Shown here piece after piece: positions 353 through 23,896 of a stretch of 64,000 nt of DNA (its first letter is position 1; every line of letters starts with the position of its first letter). The position numbers were made by a program, and so were the translations under genes. The stretch lies in the NCBI RefSeq assembly GCF_988243305.1, contig NZ_OZ547136.1; one strand, written 5' to 3'. Under the pieces are notes generated by a model, which was not told where the DNA came from, made no database searches, and worked only from the letters and a program-made list of their open reading frames with translations.

Positions 353-540
353 TGACCATCAGCGATATCATTGAAATTATTGTCGTTTGCGCACTGATAT
401 TTTTCCCGCTGGGCTATCTGGCGCGGCACTCTTTGCGACGCATTCGCGACACCTTACGTTTGTTCTTTGCTAAACCTCGTTATGTTAAACCGGCCGGGAC
501 GTTACGCCGCACGGAAAAAGCCAGGGCAACCAAAAAATGA
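349..540 (+). CDS. bcsF: Cellulose biosynthesis small membrane protein BcsF (63 aa)
   Basis: 63-aa [27 protein letters not shown]... with one hydrophobic helix; 4-bp overlaps with both neighbours. Confidence 0.85.
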
Positions 541-2216
541 CTCAATTTACGCAAAATACCGCCATGCCTTCTTCCCTCTGGCAATACTGGCGCGGCCTTT
601 CCGGCTGGAACTTCTATTTTCTGGTTAAGTTCGGCCTGTTGTGGGCGGGATATCTTAACTTCCATCCGCTCCTCAATCTGGTGTTTGCCGCGTTTCTGCT
701 GATGCCCATTCCGCGCTACAGCCTGCATCGCTTACGCCACTGGATTGCCCTGCCGATCGGCTTTGCTTTGTTCTGGCATGACACCTGGTTACCTGGCCCG
801 GAAAGCATAATGAGCCAGGGTTCGCAGGTGGCGGGGTTCAGTACCGATTATTTAATCGACCTTGTCACACGCTTTATTAACTGGCAGATGATTGGGGCCA
901 TTTTTGTTTTATTAGTGGCCTGGTTATTCCTGTCACAATGGATTCGCATTACCGTTTTTGTGGTTGCCATTCTGCTATGGCTGAACGTACTTACCCTGGC
1001 GGGACCAAGTTTCTCCTTGTGGCCAGCCGGTCAACCGACGACCACTGTAACAACGACGGGTGGTAACGCAGCGGCAACCGTTGCGGCGACGGGTGGCGCA
1101 CCGGTAGTGGGTGATATGCCCGCACAAACTGCACCGCCAACAACGGCGAACCTTAACGCCTGGCTGAATAATTTCTATAACGCGGAGGCGAAACGTAAAT
1201 CGACCTTCCCGTCTTCGCTGCCCGCTGATGCTCAGCCATTTGAACTACTGGTGATTAATATCTGTTCGCTTTCCTGGTCGGATATAGAAGCCGCCGGGTT
1301 GATGTCGCATCCGCTGTGGTCGCATTTCGATATTGAGTTCAAGAACTTTAACTCCGCCACCTCCTACAGTGGCCCGGCGGCGATCCGTTTACTGCGCGCC
1401 AGCTGCGGGCAGACTTCGCACACTAATCTGTATCAACCGGCAAATAATGACTGCTATCTGTTTGATAACCTGTCGAAACTGGGCTTTACCCAGCACCTGA
1501 TGATGGGACATAACGGCCAGTTCGGCGGTTTTTTGAAAGAAGTTCGCGAAAATGGCGGCATGCAGACCGAATTGATGGATCAAACAAATTTGCCGGTTAT
1601 TTTGCTGGGCTTTGATGGTTCGCCGGTTTATGACGATACCGCCGTGCTTAACCGCTGGCTGGACGTTACCGAAAAAGATAAAAACAGCCGTAGTGCCACG
1701 TTCTACAACACGCTTCCACTGCATGACGGCAACCATTATCCGGGCGTCAGCAAAACAGCGGATTACAAAGCGCGGGCGCAGAAATTCTTTGATGAACTGG
1801 ACGCCTTCTTTACTGAACTGGAGAAATCGGGTCGTAAAGTGATGGTGGTCGTGGTGCCGGAACACGGTGGCGCGCTGAAGGGCGACAGAATGCAGGTATC
1901 TGGCCTACGTGATATCCCTAGCCCGTCTATCACAGACGTCCCCGTTGGGGTGAAATTCTTCGGCATGAAGGCACCACATCAGGGGGCACCGATTGTCATC
2001 GACCAACCGAGCAGCTTCCTGGCTATCTCCGATCTGGTGGTTCGCGTTCTTGATGGCAAGATTTTCTCCGAAGACAATGTTGACTGGAAAAAACTCACCA
2101 GTGGGTTGCCACAAACAGCACCGGTCTCAGAGAACTCAAATGCAGTAGTTATTCAATACCAGGATAAACCGTACGTTCGCCTGAACGGCGGCGACTGGGT
2201 GCCTTACCCGCAATAA
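537..2216 (+). CDS. bcsG: Cellulose phosphoethanolamine transferase BcsG (559 aa)
   Basis: 559-aa ORF with N-terminal membrane helices, T/A/G/P-rich linker and C-terminal alkaline-phosphatase-like domain; length matches BcsG. Confidence 0.92.
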
Positions 2217-2302
2217 GAACGAAAAAGGCCGCAGAGTTTCACCCCTGCGGCCTGGTCCGGGCGCAAATTGCCATTACGGCAGCCTGACGCCCGCATGACA
2301 CG

Positions 2303-2410
2303 TTACTTCCGCTTATTCAGCGAGTTCACGATCAGACTGGCAAGAATGCCAGCAATGACCGGAGCCGCTAAATCATGCCAGAAGGCCATGCCCAGTTCTG
2401 CGAGCGTCAT
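2303..2410 (-). CDS. Ldr-family type I toxin, 35 aa (copy 1, Trp->Ser variant near C-terminus)
   Basis: MTLAELGMAFWHDLAAPVIAGILASLIVNSLNKRK; ATG at 2408-2410 on minus strand; matches LdrD-type peptide as remembered. Confidence 0.8.
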   Translation of the reverse strand: MTLAELGMAFWHDLAAPVIAGILASLIVNSLNKRK

Positions 2411-2457
2411 ATAGCCGCCTCTGTTGTAATGACAACGTTTCGCGGCTATTCTTGAGT

Positions 2458-2524
2458 TGTTTGGGTTCAAGATTAGCCCCCGTGATGTTGTCAGGTGCAT
2501 ACCTGCAATATGCGGGGGTTTTCT
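2458..2524 (+). ncRNA. Rdl-type antisense sRNA (copy 1), ends in GC hairpin plus U-run
   Basis: cccccg...cggggg stem followed by ttttctctc; lies antisense to the ldr 5' leader; exact 5' end not determinable from sequence. Confidence 0.45.
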
Positions 2525-2785
2525 CTCTCCAGCAACCAATGCCACTAGGGATTAAGCCCCCGCAACATTGCGCCTCACCGGAACCCTTCCGGCTTGCCGC
2601 TGATTCTACGGCCATTTTTGTTCGTCGAAATCCATCACTTCTTCACTCTGTGCTGCGCATTCCGCAGAATATTATCCGCTTGCAACCGTTGCATTTTTCT
2701 TACGAAAAAGGCCGCAGAGTTTTATCCCTGCGGCCTGATCCGGGCGCAAATTGCCATTACGGCAGCCTGACGCCCGTCTGACACG

Positions 2786-2893
2786 TTACTTCCGCTTGTT
2801 CAGCCAGTTCACGATCAGACTGGCAAGAATGCCAGCAATGACCGGAGCCGCTAAATCATGCCAGAAGGCCATGCCCAGCTCTGCGAGCGTCAT
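2786..2893 (-). CDS. Ldr-family type I toxin, 35 aa (copy 2)
   Basis: MTLAELGMAFWHDLAAPVIAGILASLIVNWLNKRK; ATG at 2891-2893 on minus strand. Confidence 0.85.
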   Translation of the reverse strand: MTLAELGMAFWHDLAAPVIAGILASLIVNWLNKRK

Positions 2894-2940
2894 ATAGCCG
2901 CCTGAGTTGTAATGACAACGTTTCGCGGCTATTCTTGTAT

Positions 2941-3007
2941 TGTTTGGATGCAAGAATGGCCCCCGTGGTGTTGTCAGGTGCATACCTGCAACGTGCGGGG
3001 GTTTTCT
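2941..3007 (+). ncRNA. Rdl-type antisense sRNA (copy 2)
   Basis: Same hairpin plus U-run terminator as copy 1, offset by one repeat period. Confidence 0.45.
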
Positions 3008-3268
3008 CTCTCCAGCAACCAATGCCACCAGGGATAAAGCCCCCGCAACATTGCGCCTCACCGGAACCTTTCCGGCTTGCCGCTGATTCTACGACTGTTT
3101 TTCTGCTCCGGAATCCGTCACTTCTTCACTCTGTGCTGTGCATTCCGCAGAATATTATCCGCTTGCAACCGTTGCATTTTTCTTACGAAAAAGGCCGCAG
3201 AGTTTTATCCCTGCGGCCTGATCCGGACGCAACTTGCCATTACGGCAGCCTGACGCCCGTCTGACACG

Positions 3269-3376
3269 TTACTTCCGCTTATTCAGCCAATTCACGATCA
3301 TGCTGGCAAGAATGCCAGCAATGACCGGAGCCGCTAAATCATGCCAGAAGGCCATGCCCAGTTCTGCGAGCGTCAT
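3269..3376 (-). CDS. ldrD: Ldr-family type I toxin, 35 aa (copy 3, closest to the K-12 LdrD sequence as I recall it)
   Basis: MTLAELGMAFWHDLAAPVIAGILASMIVNWLNKRK; ATG at 3374-3376 on minus strand. Confidence 0.85.
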   Translation of the reverse strand: MTLAELGMAFWHDLAAPVIAGILASMIVNWLNKRK

Positions 3377-3425
3377 ATAGCCGCCTGTGTTGTAATGACA
3401 ACGTTTCGCGGCTATTCTTGAGTGG

Positions 3426-3492
3426 TCTAGGTTCAAGATTAGCCCCCGTGATGTTGTCAGGTGCATACCTGCAACGTGCGGGGGTTTTCTCT
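3426..3492 (+). ncRNA. Rdl-type antisense sRNA (copy 3)
   Basis: Hairpin cccccgtgatg...cgtgcggggg followed by ttttctctctcc. Confidence 0.45.
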
Positions 3493-3851
3493 CTCCAGCA
3501 ACCAATGCCACCAGGGATTAAGCCCCCGCAACATTGCGCCTCACCGGAACCTTTCCGGCTTGCCGCTGATTTTACGATTGCTTTTTACCGTCAGCACCCG
3601 GCAATCTTCCTCATTGCGCGATGCCTTCCAGCTTAATTTCTTTATTTGCAATAGTTGCAGTTCATATCCGAGCTGACTCCAGACTGGTAGTGAAATGCGC
3701 AATTTTGTAGAATTGCGCCTCCTCGCGACCTCCCCAGTGAATCTGTTGCCTCATTTTTTACATACTGCGTATTCGACTTCTCCACCTGTTGCGCAAGAGA
3801 AACTGGGTTTATTCATTTTTGCGAGGCCGACTTCTTTCTGGACAGGACTTT

Positions 3852-5123
3852 ATGCAGCACAACACACTACCGAAACACAATCAGAAATTGCCGTTTACAC
3901 GCTACGACTTCGGCTGGGTTTTATTATGCATAGGCATGGCGATTGGTGCCGGAACCGTGCTGATGCCAGTACAAATTGGCTTGAAGGGAATTTGGGTATT
4001 TATTACCGCAGCGATCATTGCTTATCCTGCCACCTGGGTAGTGCAGGACATTTATTTAAAAACCCTTTCTGAAAGCGATTCCTGTAATGACTACACCGAT
4101 ATTATCAGTCATTACCTGGGGAAGAACTGGGGAATTTTCCTCGGGGTTATCTACTTTTTGATGATTATCCACGGGATTTTTATCTACTCTCTCTCCGTGG
4201 TTTTCGACAGCGCCTCGTACCTGAAAACCTTCGGTTTAACCGATGCCGATCTTTCACAATCTCTACTTTATAAAGTCGCCATTTTCGCCGTACTGGTGGC
4301 AATTGCGTCTGGTGGTGAACGATTACTGTTTAAGATTTCCGGGCCAATGGTGGTGGTCAAAGTAGGGATTATCGTCGTGTTCGGTTTTGCGATGATCCCG
4401 CACTGGAATTTCGCCAATATAACCGCCTTCCCGCAAGCCTCCGTCTTTTTCCGCGATGTCCTGCTTACCATTCCCTTTTGCTTCTTTTCTGCGGTATTTA
4501 TTCAGGTACTTAACCCAATGAATATTGCCTATCGTAAACGGGAAGCGGATAAAGTACTGGCAACCCGGCTCGCGCTGCGTACCCACCGAATTAGTTATAT
4601 CACGCTCATTGCGGTGATCCTGTTTTTTGCCTTTTCGTTTACCTTCTCAATTAGCCACGAAGAAGCCGTTTCTGCCTTTGAACAAAATATCTCGGCACTG
4701 GCACTGGCCGCGCAGGTGATCCCTGGGCATATCATTCATATCACCTCTACGGTGCTGAATATCTTTGCCGTACTGACCGCATTCTTTGGCATTTATCTCG
4801 GTTTCCACGAGGCCATTAAAGGCATTATTCTCAATCTGTTAAGCCGAATTATTGATACCAAGAAAATTAACTCACGCATGCTGACTCTGGCGATCTGCGC
4901 TTTTATCGTCATTACGTTGACGATTTGGGTTTCGTTTCGTGTATCGGTGCTGGTGTTCTTTCAGTTGGGAAGCCCGTTATATGGCATTGTGTCGTGCCTC
5001 ATTCCGTTTTTCCTGATCTATAAAGTCGCACAACTGGAAAAACTTCGCGGGTTTAAAGCCTGGCTGATTCTGCTGTACGGCATTTTGTTATGCTTGTCGC
5101 CACTGTTGAAGCTGATTGAGTAA
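3852..5123 (+). CDS. yhjV: Inner-membrane amino-acid transporter family protein YhjV (423 aa)
   Basis: Multi-helix membrane protein starting [34 protein letters not shown]; start taken at the internal Met to match 423 aa. Confidence 0.88.
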
Positions 5124-11060: not shown

Positions 11061-11596
11061 CAACGGTGAGAATCCACAAACAAAGATTAAAAAAACTTCA
11101 AACAGCTATTTGCAGCAGAGAAATTTGTGCTACTCCAACATGACCAGAACAATCAGCTTAATATTTAGCAACAATTGGTGATTAAGTTTTATGCATTTTG
11201 TGAAAAAAATCTGAGGAAAAGGTGGATATCTGAGCGATTAATACCATGAACGCTAAAACGCACAGCGGAAAATGCCAGCGCCAGTCATAAGTAACGCAAA
11301 AAAAGATTTAAGCAAATATAAAAAAAGACAATGGTTTCTGTCACAAATCCGTTAATGGATAGTGAGATATGGGGCGCAAATTTGGCAGGGAAATGTGTGG
11401 TGTGTTGCCGTTTAGATCGGATAAGACGGATACGCTGTATCCCACAATGAGTGCGGTGCCGAATTTGGTCGGTGCCAGAGGATTACTCGCCACTTCGTGG
11501 CTCGCCCTGCGGGCCGTTGCTGGCGCAACGTTCTCTCGCTTCGCTCGAGTCGAACCTCCCTGCCCCCGGAGGTTCTCATCCTCATAGGCTACAAAT

Positions 11597-11624
11597 GCAA
11601 AAAAGCCTGCTCGTTGAGCAGGCT
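11597..11624 (-). terminator. Rho-independent terminator downstream of proK
   Basis: Hairpin agcctgctcgttgagcaggct flanked by A-run on plus strand (U-run on minus). Confidence 0.75.
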
Positions 11625-11633
11625 TTTCGAATT

Positions 11634-11710
<77 letters not shown>

Positions 11711-22899: not shown

Positions 22900-22907
22900 G
22901 CACATCA

Positions 22908-23066
22908 ACGGTTTGACGTACAGACCATTAAAGCAGTGTAGTAAGGCAAGTCCCTTCAAGAGTTATCGTTGATACCCCTCGTAGTGCACATTCCTTTAAC
23001 GCTTCAAAATCTGTAAAGCACGCCATATCGCCGAAAGGCACACTTAATTATTAAAGGTAATACACT
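22908..23066 (+). promoter_or_regulatory. cspA 159-nt 5' UTR (cold-box / RNA thermosensor leader)
   Basis: Leader beginning ACGGTTTGACGTACAGACC... runs to the ATG at 23067; established cspA biology. Confidence 0.8.
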
Positions 23067-23279
23067 ATGTCCGGTAAAATGACTGGTATCGTAAAATGGT
23101 TCAACGCTGACAAAGGCTTCGGCTTCATCACTCCTGACGATGGCTCTAAAGACGTGTTCGTACACTTCTCTGCTATCCAGAACGATGGTTACAAATCTCT
23201 GGACGAAGGTCAGAAAGTGTCCTTCACCATCGAAAGCGGCGCTAAAGGCCCGGCAGCTGGTAACGTAACCAGCCTGTAA
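23067..23279 (+). CDS. cspA: Major cold-shock protein CspA (70 aa)
   Basis: [70 protein letters not shown]. Confidence 0.98.
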
Positions 23280-23306
23280 TCTCTGCTTAAAAGCACAGAA
23301 TCTAAG

Positions 23307-23337
23307 ATCCCTGCCATTTGGCGGGGATTTTTTTATT
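23307..23337 (+). terminator. cspA rho-independent terminator
   Basis: Hairpin tccctgcc-attt-ggcgggga followed by tttttttatttg. Confidence 0.8.
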
Positions 23338-23466: not shown

Positions 23467-23619
23467 TTACTCTTTCAAATTGCAGGCTAAAAATGCCGCC
23501 AGCTCATAACTCCCCTGTTTAATATGCAATTCACACAGTGAATCTCTTATCATCCAGGTGAAAAATAAAAGCGTGCAACAAATCACTATTAAAGAAAGTA
23601 ATCTATATTTCTGCGGCAT
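23467..23619 (-). CDS. hokA: Hok-family type I toxin HokA (50 aa)
   Basis: MPQKYRLLSLIVICCTLLFFTWMIRDSLCELHIKQGSYELAAFLACNLKE; an in-frame 20-codon upstream extension exists in the ORF track. Confidence 0.85.
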   Translation of the reverse strand: MPQKYRLLSLIVICCTLLFFTWMIRDSLCELHIKQGSYELAAFLACNLKE

Positions 23620-23896
23620 TCCCAGCCTCCTGTGTTGATTTCCAACGAGTAAGAGGCTAACCTTATGGTGTTCAGGCATAGGGTAGCCTCACTTTGATTT
23701 ATAGTCAGGTGGGGCTTTTCTCTGTCTGCCTTTCGGTGAATACCTGAGACAAACAGTCTCAAGCACCCGCAGCTATTCTAGCTTAATAAGTTCGTTTCTT
23801 CTCCTTGATATAATCCTAAAAAAATCTCATAAAATTAATATATGAGACAATCTTTATTCAGCAGAAGATTATTAAAGGTTGCTCTATTATTTAGCG

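Follow-up and report, generated by a model that had tools for sequence, protein, structure and literature searches.

A probable three-unit allele of the Escherichia coli LDR-D locus with tandem ldrD/rdlD toxin–antitoxin modules between bcsG and yhjV

The interval between bcsG and yhjV was analysed in a 64,000-nucleotide stretch of DNA (NCBI RefSeq assembly GCF_988243305.1, contig NZ_OZ547136.1; the whole stretch is referred to as the window). With a probability of about 0.9, what lies here is an allele of the E. coli chromosomal LDR-D locus with three units, each a complete and apparently functional ldrD/rdlD module, arranged in tandem. As judged from its sequence, each module is an Ldr/Rdl type I toxin–antitoxin system of the LdrD group by its peptide, its antisense RNA, its long 5′ UTR and terminator, and its locus.

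Materials and methods

What was computed here is the array's anatomy, its membership of the family, its frequency in the population and its recombinant structure; toxicity, repression by Rdl, promoters and leader-ORF coupling rest on published work with K-12 ldrD/rdlD or on inference. The length and the 5′ ends of the ldr mRNA follow reviews and general knowledge. Coverage of a 3-kb query could not tell one, two and three copies apart (BLAST pieces may overlap), and copies were counted with a junction-only query.

Results

Positions 2219–3586 were returned by Tandem Repeats Finder as one array with a period of 483, 2.8 copies, 93% matches and 0 indels (score 2433), and a separate repeat search of the window gave three copies spaced at 483 + 483. 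The three head-to-tail units of about 483 bp described in the initial annotation are thereby confirmed. The 82 bp past the third core (3586–3667) are homologous in register with the inter-unit spacers: 43 of the 82 positions are identical, against 22.5 ± 3.9 in shuffles, and this match is seen at offset 0 only. The array therefore consists of three full units over 2219–3667 (Table 1); it does lie where it was first placed, at 2217–3577, but extends slightly further. The three units differ from one another at about 6% of core positions, with at least 25 differences per pair, and unit 3 shares 95.5% identity with the K-12 LDR-D unit over its core.

Table 1. Features of the LDR-D array and its flanks (window coordinates).
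Feature	Position	Strand	Evidence and remarks
bcsG (cellulose phosphoethanolamine transferase), left flank	537–2216	+	ORF; Pfam CBP_BcsG, 784 bits; annotated bcsG in matching genomes
LDR-D unit 1, 483 bp	2219–2701	.	Tandem Repeats Finder and repeat search; core 93.8% identical to unit 2 and unit 3 cores
ldr-1 mRNA intrinsic terminator	2226–2253	−	11-bp stem, then TTTTCGT; 10 nt 3′ of bcsG stop codon
ldr-1, 35 aa, MTLAELGMAFWHDLAAPVIAGILASLIVNSLNKRK	2303–2410	−	ORF; Ldr_toxin, 83.4 bits; Ser at residue 29 against the conserved Trp of the family
Candidate Rdl-1 and Rdl-2 promoters	2424–2452, 2907–2935	+	Same hexamers as candidate Rdl-3 promoter; by eye
Rdl-1 antitoxin RNA	2459–2524	+	RF01813, 86.2 bits; fold z = −4.2; own terminator called
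Leader AUG, units 1 and 2	2498–2500, 2981–2983	−	Same AUG as in unit 3
Candidate −10 boxes TAGAAT, units 1 and 2	2603–2608, 3086–3091	−	By eye
LDR-D unit 2, 483 bp	2702–3184	.	Tandem Repeats Finder and repeat search; core comparison
ldr-2 mRNA intrinsic terminator	2709–2736	−	Terminator scan
ldr-2, 35 aa, MTLAELGMAFWHDLAAPVIAGILASLIVNWLNKRK	2786–2893	−	ORF; Ldr_toxin, 90.7 bits
Rdl-2 antitoxin RNA	2942–3007	+	RF01813, 81.7 bits; fold z = −3.2
LDR-D unit 3	3185–3667	.	Conserved core 3185–3586; 3586–3667 is the diverged spacer counterpart
ldr-3 mRNA intrinsic terminator	3192–3219	−	Terminator scan
ldr-3, 35 aa, MTLAELGMAFWHDLAAPVIAGILASMIVNWLNKRK	3269–3376	−	ORF; Ldr_toxin, 93.2 bits; 34/35 identical to K-12 LdrD
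Candidate Rdl-3 promoter TTGTAA, 17 nt, TATTCT	3390–3418	+	By eye; 8/12 consensus; ends 6 nt before Rdl 5′ end
Rdl-3 antitoxin RNA	3425–3490	+	RF01813, 90.4 bits; fold z = −4.9; in-unit offset as in K-12 rdlD
Leader AUG, unit 3	3464–3466	−	Inside Rdl-complementary stretch, opposite Rdl loop; in frame, 90 nt upstream of ldr AUG
Candidate ldr-3 −10 box TAAAAT	3569–3574	−	By eye
yhjV (putative transporter), right flank	3852–5123	+	ORF; Pfam; annotation in matching genomes

On the minus strand of each unit, the proposed 35-residue toxin ORF was found to match the Pfam family Ldr_toxin (PF13940) over residues 1–35 of 35 with 83–93 bits (cut-off 27). The peptides of ldr-2 and ldr-3 end in ...NWLNKRK and that of ldr-1 in ...NSLNKRK (W29S). 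The Ldr/Fst signature (PMC2887945) is a conserved tryptophan behind the transmembrane helix, with a charged C-terminus after it. The unit 1 peptide, which lacks this tryptophan, may have reduced toxicity or none, but it is a common variant (the exact W29S peptide was found on at least 1000 public contigs).

The hairpin aggccgcag...ctgcggcct is seen at the start of all three units, as noted initially. Its copy at 2226–2253 has a folding energy of −22.9 kcal/mol on the minus strand (z = −5.0) and −18 kcal/mol on the plus strand. The terminator scan called the minus strand only, 50 nt 3′ of each ldr ORF; the plus strand has no T-run at this hairpin and no terminator was called there, which leaves the proposed role as the bcsG terminator unsupported. 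The hairpin is the terminator of the ldr mRNA. At the other end, the conserved ldr leader covers about 186 nt before the AUG, back to the candidate −10 box, near which the 5′ end would lie.

Opposite each leader, the Rfam model RF01813 (rdlD) was matched in full length (model positions 1–66 of 66) by three RNAs scoring 82–90 bits, against a gathering score of 50. Each starts 49 nt upstream of the ldr AUG, on the strand opposite to ldr, and folds into a free 5′ tail, a long GC-rich hairpin and a U-run (z −3.2 to −4.9); K-12 rdlD occupies offset 240–303 of its unit. The family match, the folds and the terminator scan agree with the Rdl-like antisense RNA, ending in a GC hairpin and U-run, that had been read from the letters. 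A σ70 promoter scan of 2100–3900 gave no site at a threshold of 9/12, where 1.4 are expected by chance, and the promoters named in Table 1, picked out by eye, are therefore weak matches to the consensus.

A regulatory leader ORF, ldrX, has been proposed for ldr (PMC4147584; PMC8594479), and the AUG within the leader is its putative start. In most units this upstream in-frame AUG opens an extended ORF of 65 residues. A conserved leader peptide was considered and dropped, because a stop codon breaks the frame in the units of some strains and the peptide is poorly conserved. The leader-ORF model itself lacks experimental confirmation (PMC4147584).

The locus, gene order and offsets of ldrD/rdlD in K-12 MG1655 are those found here, and K-12 LdrD is one residue (L3F) away from ldr-3; K-12, however, has one unit against three in the window. 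The array of BL21(DE3) is identical in architecture, with three 483-bp units, two junctions and the same flanking genes. Its units are mosaics that are 94–96.5% identical to the window units, its Rdl 5′-tail types come in a different order and its unit 1 encodes the K-12 LdrD peptide. The K-12 ldrA/B/C–rdlA/B/C genes resemble the present array in family, module anatomy and head-to-tail tandem arrangement, and parts of their leaders are strongly conserved with respect to LDR-D. They differ in lying between kdsA and chaA, in their period (535 bp against 483 here) and in sequence (about 72% nucleotide identity), and LdrA-type peptides are 60–63% identical (21–22 of 35 residues) to the peptides here. 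An array of the ldrABC type was ruled out by peptide identity, period and flanks. The paralogues have been divided into an ‘LdrB-group’ and an ‘LdrD-group’ (PMC2887945).

The hok/sok systems share with ldr/rdl a long 5′ UTR, an antisense RNA that lies opposite the leader and not the ORF, and the proposal of a translationally coupled leader ORF, but their toxin family is unrelated to Ldr. For ldr, in contrast to hok/sok, no 3′ processing step is known. Against the Rfam sok model (RF01794) the ldr leaders scored 26–30 bits, far below the gathering score of 59, and hok/sok identity was ruled out by these sub-threshold scores together with toxins that match Ldr_toxin only. The window does hold hokA/sokA, at 23617–23768. 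The ibs/sib and zorO–orzO/zorP–orzP systems are likewise duplicated within one intergenic region with strain-variable copy number (PMC2887945; PMC11264685), though their toxins and RNAs differ from those of ldr/rdl. The copy-number distribution of zor/orz has been published across about 2,200 genomes; no such survey for ldr at bcsG–yhjV was found in the literature searched.

Among 5,426 complete E. coli genomes, a collection skewed to clinical and laboratory strains, the bcsG–yhjV locus holds one copy in about 39%, two in 10%, three in 33% and four or more in 17% (952 genomes, four of which were checked directly), with three copies the commonest multi-copy state. At least one inter-unit junction is present in 3,304 of these genomes, which together contain 6,989 chromosomal junctions, at most 4 per genome. 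In a spread sample of 59 chromosomes, one, two, three and four copies were found in 23, 8, 18 and 10 genomes, respectively. Two independent complete genomes carry the same three-unit locus at 99.9% identity, and diverged versions of it are present in about one third of complete E. coli genomes. For BL21(DE3), three ldrD/rdlD pairs between bcsG and yhjV have been reported with transcriptome evidence (Kim et al., Nucleic Acids Res 2017, PMC5435950). The three-copy arrangement at this locus is already known and common; with such a frequency and a published precedent, the suggestion of the initial annotation that this strain amplified the module is not supported.

Comparison with K-12 MG1655 located both loci named in the initial annotation, the single ldrD/rdlD at bcsG–yhjV and the ldrABC triplet at kdsA–chaA. 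Unequal recombination was upheld as the mechanism of copy-number change, since arrays differ by multiples of 482–484 bp and single-copy alleles consist exactly of the head of one unit and the tail of another from multi-copy alleles. The K-12 unit has 0 mismatches to unit 1 of T7Express (BL21 lineage) over 1–393 and 0 to its unit 3 from 268 onward, and the flanks of the two strains are identical at 700/700 and 898/900 positions; the single unit of O170 likewise pairs a head from Nissle unit 1 with a tail from Nissle unit 2. The K-12 chimaera is the product expected of a two-unit deletion by unequal recombination, and the K-12 single copy thus looks like a derived, collapsed form, a direction that is read from one pairwise comparison and one further example rather than from a phylogeny.

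Variant blocks are spread as a mosaic over units and strains. The array is probably an old polymorphic tandem repeat, of which E. coli genomes have between 1 and about 5 copies; unequal homologous recombination between units of 94–97% identity changes the copy number and at the same time shuffles the variant blocks. In keeping with this age, the bcsG–yhjV locus of E. whittamii and Escherichia sp. E1V33 has 1–2 units. An exact 18-mer scan of species-representative genomes, which did not reach E. albertii, E. fergusonii, Shigella or Salmonella, gave five Escherichia loci and chance matches; at the Buttiauxella match there is no Ldr ORF.

Diversity within the unit has its hot spot in the single-stranded 5′ tail of Rdl. 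Over 54 units, the mean pairwise difference of this tail is 17.7% (16 nt), that of the other core segments 2.4–4.5%, except for 12.3% at the promoter-proximal edge. Pairs of identical tails within the same array number 1 against 6.6 expected (shuffle P = 0.004, in a test that ignores shared ancestry and positional orthology), a result that is only suggestive of tails being distinct within arrays beyond chance. For the tails in the window, duplexes were calculated at −24 to −26 kcal/mol for cognate and −6 to −22 kcal/mol for non-cognate pairs.

Discussion

A unit may be expected to work as follows. From the minus strand, an ldr mRNA of about 375 nt (the length predicted from the candidate −10 box of ldr-3 to the terminator) would be transcribed with a long 5′ UTR, the 35-codon ORF and its own intrinsic terminator, and would encode a small hydrophobic membrane toxin. 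From the plus strand, within the region encoding this 5′ UTR, the 66-nt Rdl would be made, with perfect complementarity to the cognate ldr leader, the upstream AUG included. Rdl is thought to block translation of the leader and with it the coupled translation of ldr, and the Rdl–ldr duplex would be a substrate of RNase III. In K-12, overexpressed LdrD is toxic and RdlD relieves the toxicity (Kawano et al. 2002, summarised in PMC4147584); repression of Ldr synthesis by Rdl in a hok/sok-like leader-ORF model has been described (PMC4147584; PMC8594479) and the ldrD–rdlD RNase III duplex has been captured (PMC7373196).

Recent amplification of a K-12-like single ldrD/rdlD unit in this strain would account for the difference in copy number from K-12, would use a process, unequal crossing-over, that does expand tandem repeats and would suit an exact allele that only two genomes match at ≥99%. 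It is nevertheless very improbable: the divergence between unit cores of about 6% far exceeds the approximately 2–3% divergence of the flanks between strains, three-unit arrays are present in BL21 as in about one third of complete genomes, and every unit has a counterpart in some other strain that it resembles more than it does the units beside it (for instance, TCM3e1 unit 4 for unit 3, at 98.5% identity, and Nissle unit 1 for unit 1, at 98.0%). The K-12 unit, moreover, is itself a chimaera of BL21 (or BL21-like) units 1 and 3. An assembly artefact, in which a single unit was expanded or a larger array collapsed, is equally hard to credit. Short-read assembly has long had difficulty with tandem repeats of about 0.5 kb, and the window alone cannot verify the copy number, but the units are told apart by their many pairwise differences, the two independent genomes carry the same three units at 99.9% identity, and arrays of 1–4 units in exact 483-bp steps occur in thousands of complete, mostly long-read genomes.

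One or more units might also be decaying relics, so that fewer than three modules function. The main candidate is unit 1, whose toxin has the lowest Pfam score and is devoid of the tryptophan that Fozo et al. (PMC2887945) call a superfamily signature, and chromosomal hok/sok copies are often inactivated (general knowledge; also PMC2887945). This seems unlikely all the same, as the ORF is intact in every unit, each Rdl scores above the Rfam gathering threshold, both terminators and the candidate promoter hexamers are retained throughout, and the unchanged W29S peptide on so many contigs argues for maintenance over random decay.

It is doubtful, though conceivable, that the tandem units are partly orthogonal modules and not redundant copies. 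The 5′ tail is where Rdl is expected to touch the ldr leader first. Were selection to maintain the differences between tails, each Rdl would act preferentially on the ldr of its own unit, much as has been shown for Sib/Ibs, and the number of toxins under separate control would follow from the length of the array. Tail diversity may instead reflect relaxed constraint in a stretch that neither codes nor has a structural function. The hot spot extends to a few bases ahead of where Rdl starts, and one tail is common to K-12 rdlB and rdlC; both observations weaken the case for orthogonal modules.

[quoted passage not shown] Its consequences are practical. K-12, the reference for nearly all work on ldr/rdl, has a minority allele that looks collapsed, and studies of ‘ldrD’ deletion or expression in other strains must reckon with 2–4 paralogous units; the repeat is also a likely spot for errors of assembly and annotation. 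The hot spot in the Rdl tail offers a cheap, testable question on antitoxin specificity within arrays.

Structure of the array

A single array was returned by Tandem Repeats Finder at 2219-3586 (period 483, 2.8 copies, 93% matches, no indels), and a separate repeat search located three copies at spacings of 483 and 483. The next 82 bp after the third core (3586-3667) were compared with the two inter-unit spacers and were identical at 43 of 82 positions (shuffles 22.5 ± 3.9), at offset 0 only. Because this segment aligns in register with the spacers, the array comprises three complete 483-bp units (2219-3667), the distal part of unit 3 being diverged. The spacers are recognisable counterparts, roughly 50% diverged, of the segment leading from the last unit to yhjV, and this homology indicates that sequence lying upstream of the ldr promoter was part of the originally duplicated segment. 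Upstream of the -10 boxes the internal units differ from the terminal units.

All three ORFs gave end-to-end matches to Pfam Ldr_toxin (83-93 bits; cut-off 27 bits) and each unit contained an Rdl RNA scoring above the Rfam rdlD gathering score of 50 bits. The feature is real and correctly named ldr/rdl; the three tandem units of about 483 bp described in the initial annotation are borne out by the repeat searches and by the Pfam and Rfam matches.

The array is flanked by bcsG and yhjV, and outside it the window corresponds to an ordinary stretch of E. coli chromosome running from bcsE to lyxK. It includes a second type I locus, hokA/sokA, adjoining the cspA thermoregulator; the adjacent cold-shock gene is named cspE in the annotation of the closest genome. 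An RtT repeat RNA adjoins a tRNA; in the closest genome tRNA-Pro is followed there by two RtT copies, and in the window only one RtT reached the gathering score.

Features of the array and of the surrounding window (three positions refer to units 1, 2 and 3 in that order)
Feature	Position	Strand	Basis or remark
ldr ORFs, 35 codons	2303-2410, 2786-2893, 3269-3376	minus	ORF call
Rdl RNAs	2459-2524, 2942-3007, 3425-3490	plus	full-length Rfam rdlD matches, 82-90 bits
ldr mRNA terminators	2253-2226, 2736-2709, 3219-3192	minus	terminator scan
Candidate ldr -10 box TAAAAT, unit 3	3574-3569	minus	by eye
ldr AUG and stop, unit 3	3376, 3269	minus	leader ~186 nt
Candidate Rdl promoter TTGTAA, 17 nt, TATTCT, unit 3	3390-3418	plus	by eye
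Leader AUG facing Rdl loop	2498-2500, 2981-2983, 3466-3464	minus	
ldr leaders, RF01794 (sok/hok-leader)	2408-2561, 2891-3044, 3374-3527	minus	sub-threshold, 26-30 bits; gathering score 59
Rdl-tail diversity hot spot	2452-2475, 2935-2958, 3418-3441		tail plus few bases upstream of Rdl start
Ldr-1 codon 29	2324-2326	minus	
Inter-unit spacers	2620-2701, 3103-3184		
RtT repeat RNA	11466-11710	minus	98.7 bits
cspA thermoregulator	22907-23334	plus	501 bits
hokA/sokA	23617-23768	minus	Rfam sok, 124 bits

Transcripts and terminators

A promoter scan of the array region gave no site at threshold, and the candidate ldr and Rdl hexamers were picked by eye; in units 1 and 2 the candidate ldr -10 box reads TAGAAT. 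The predicted ldr transcript of unit 3 is ~375 nt long, in agreement with the roughly 370 nt reportedly found for the stable ldr mRNA by Kawano and colleagues in 2002. Rdl-3 lies at the same offset within its unit as the annotated K-12 rdlD. In the folds of all three Rdl RNAs a long hairpin precedes a U-run and the 5' tail is left free (z = -3.2 to -4.9).

Rdl lies clear of the ldr ORF and covers instead a stretch of the ldr leader in which an AUG occurs. This AUG precedes the ldr AUG by 90 nt and shares its frame, giving an extended product of 65 aa in each of the three units and in K-12; the frame is interrupted by a stop codon in some other strains. The leader AUG opposite the Rdl loop is possibly that of the proposed leader ORF ldrX. 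The weak RF01794 matches of the ldr leaders echo the hok-like layout considered in published work.

The hairpin that opens each unit had been read as doubling as the bcsG terminator, which the sequence does not support. In all three units the terminator scan called an intrinsic minus-strand terminator consisting of AGGCCGCAGGG...CTGCGGCCT and a downstream TTTTCGT; on the plus strand it called nothing at these hairpins, where no T-run follows the stem. The hairpin is thus reassigned as the terminator of the ldr mRNA. Its first copy, 10 nt past the bcsG stop codon, might impede bcsG read-through.

Copy number across E. coli

The locus was found in 5,425 of 5,426 complete E. coli genomes using a 3-kb query. 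In an evenly spaced sample of 59 chromosomes one unit was counted in 23 (including K-12 derivatives and O157:H7), two in eight (including Nissle 1917 and ATCC 25922), three in 18 (including a BL21 derivative) and four in ten; four-unit arrays were checked directly in four genomes. A junction-only query (2612-2710) matched 3,304 genomes with 6,989 chromosomal junctions and a maximum of four per genome, corresponding to up to five units. Combining the junction counts with the 952 genomes of the four-or-more class gave approximate shares of 39% with one unit (~2,121 genomes), 10.5% with two (~571), 33% with three (~1,781) and 17.5% with four or more (~952), in a collection that over-represents clinical and laboratory strains. 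A triple array at bcsG-yhjV is not unusual, and the window carries a common, already published allele of a well-known locus; for BL21(DE3), three ldrD/rdlD pairs at this position have been described (PMC5435950). Among complete E. coli genomes only NY1601 and Z1323HEC0462 (each 99.9%) matched the window's own mosaic at ≥99% identity.

Ldr gene number in enterobacterial genomes ranges from 2 to 10, and lineage-specific duplications and losses have been inferred; Fozo et al. detected no indication that type I systems spread horizontally (PMC2887945). The LDR query had 29 plasmid matches among the E. coli genomes (e.g. NZ_CP195449.1, 122138-122501), and on one plasmid of 195 kb a toxin about 81% identical is annotated as belonging to the Ldr family.

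Origin of the array

MG1655 carries a single ldrD/rdlD between bcsG and yhjV; its ldrABC/rdlABC units, spaced by 535 bp, lie between kdsA and chaA. The initial annotation was right in giving K-12 one copy here and a triple array elsewhere. The K-12 ldrABC units are only ~72% identical to the window units (peptides 60-63%), and by these identities the window array belongs to the LdrD group and is no transposed ABC array.

Amplification in this strain by unequal recombination had been proposed; the mechanism stands and the direction does not. The window units differ from one another at ~6% of core positions, while identities to units of other strains are as high as 98.0% for unit 1 (with Nissle unit 1), 97.2% for unit 2 (with TCM3e1 unit 3) and 98.5% for unit 3 (with TCM3e1 unit 4). 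Each unit is therefore nearer to a unit of another strain than to its neighbours, and the array is old. The flanks of K-12 and of a BL21-lineage genome are identical (700/700 and 898/900), and the single K-12 unit agrees at every position with BL21 unit 1 over 1-393 and with unit 3 from 268 onward, with 20 core-position differences from unit 2. A crossover of units 1 and 3 within 268-393, removing 966 bp, would give exactly the K-12 unit, which argues that the reference strain has a 966-bp deletion allele; duplication of the K-12 unit as the origin of the array cannot explain such a chimaera. The single unit of an O170:H18 strain is likewise composite, with its head from Nissle unit 1 and its tail from Nissle unit 2, and both chimaeras point to unequal homologous recombination. 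At this locus E. whittamii has one unit and Escherichia sp. E1V33 has two, so that the module at bcsG-yhjV is older than E. coli and arrays of more than one unit are not confined to that species. As judged from these comparisons, the K-12 direction is contraction and the window holds one of the common multi-unit alleles.

Variation in the Rdl 5' tail

Across 54 units from 21 genomes, the single-stranded 16-nt 5' tail of Rdl showed a mean pairwise difference of 17.7%, against about 2.4-4.5% in most core segments. Among 16-nt windows, diversity was highest in those beginning at 3418-3427 (17.7-21.8% for the tail plus a few preceding bases). The only other elevated core segment was the -10/upstream (promoter-proximal) edge of ldr (12.3%), at which the internal units differ from the terminal ones. 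The tails fell into ten haplotypes, assembled from reshuffled blocks.

Unit-specific antitoxins have been shown for Sib/Ibs, and selection for them may conceivably underlie the tail diversity, although we consider this unlikely. Identical tails within an array occurred as one pair against 6.6 expected (shuffle P = 0.004, a value that ignores shared ancestry and positional orthology). Among the window's three tails, 2-6 of 17 positions vary, with predicted tail duplexes of -24 to -26 kcal/mol for cognate and -6 to -22 kcal/mol for non-cognate pairs. A tail under little constraint fits equally well; the hot spot reaches slightly beyond the 5' end of Rdl, by a few bases, and K-12 rdlB and rdlC have one tail in common, both of which weaken the case for selection.

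Proposed mechanism and the Ldr-1 variant

Overproduced LdrD kills the K-12 cell and condenses its nucleoid, and RdlD counteracts it (PMC4147584). Rdl pairs with the leader rather than with the ribosome-binding site, and for this reason a model resembling that of hok/sok, as yet unconfirmed, has been proposed in which Rdl blocks translation of ldrX, to which ldr translation is coupled (PMC4147584, PMC8594479). RNase III acts on the ldrD-rdlD duplex as a substrate (PMC7373196). Since all elements are intact in the three units, the same mechanism is predicted for each: Rdl would pair with the ldr leader and block translation of ldrX and, with it, the coupled translation of ldr.

The one reservation about a mechanism shared by all three units is Ldr-1, in which Ser replaces the conserved Trp (LIVNSLNKRK), a residue that Fozo et al. 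regard as a superfamily signature (PMC2887945). At least 1000 public contigs encode exactly the Ldr-1 peptide, which argues for a maintained, widespread variant and against a private lesion.
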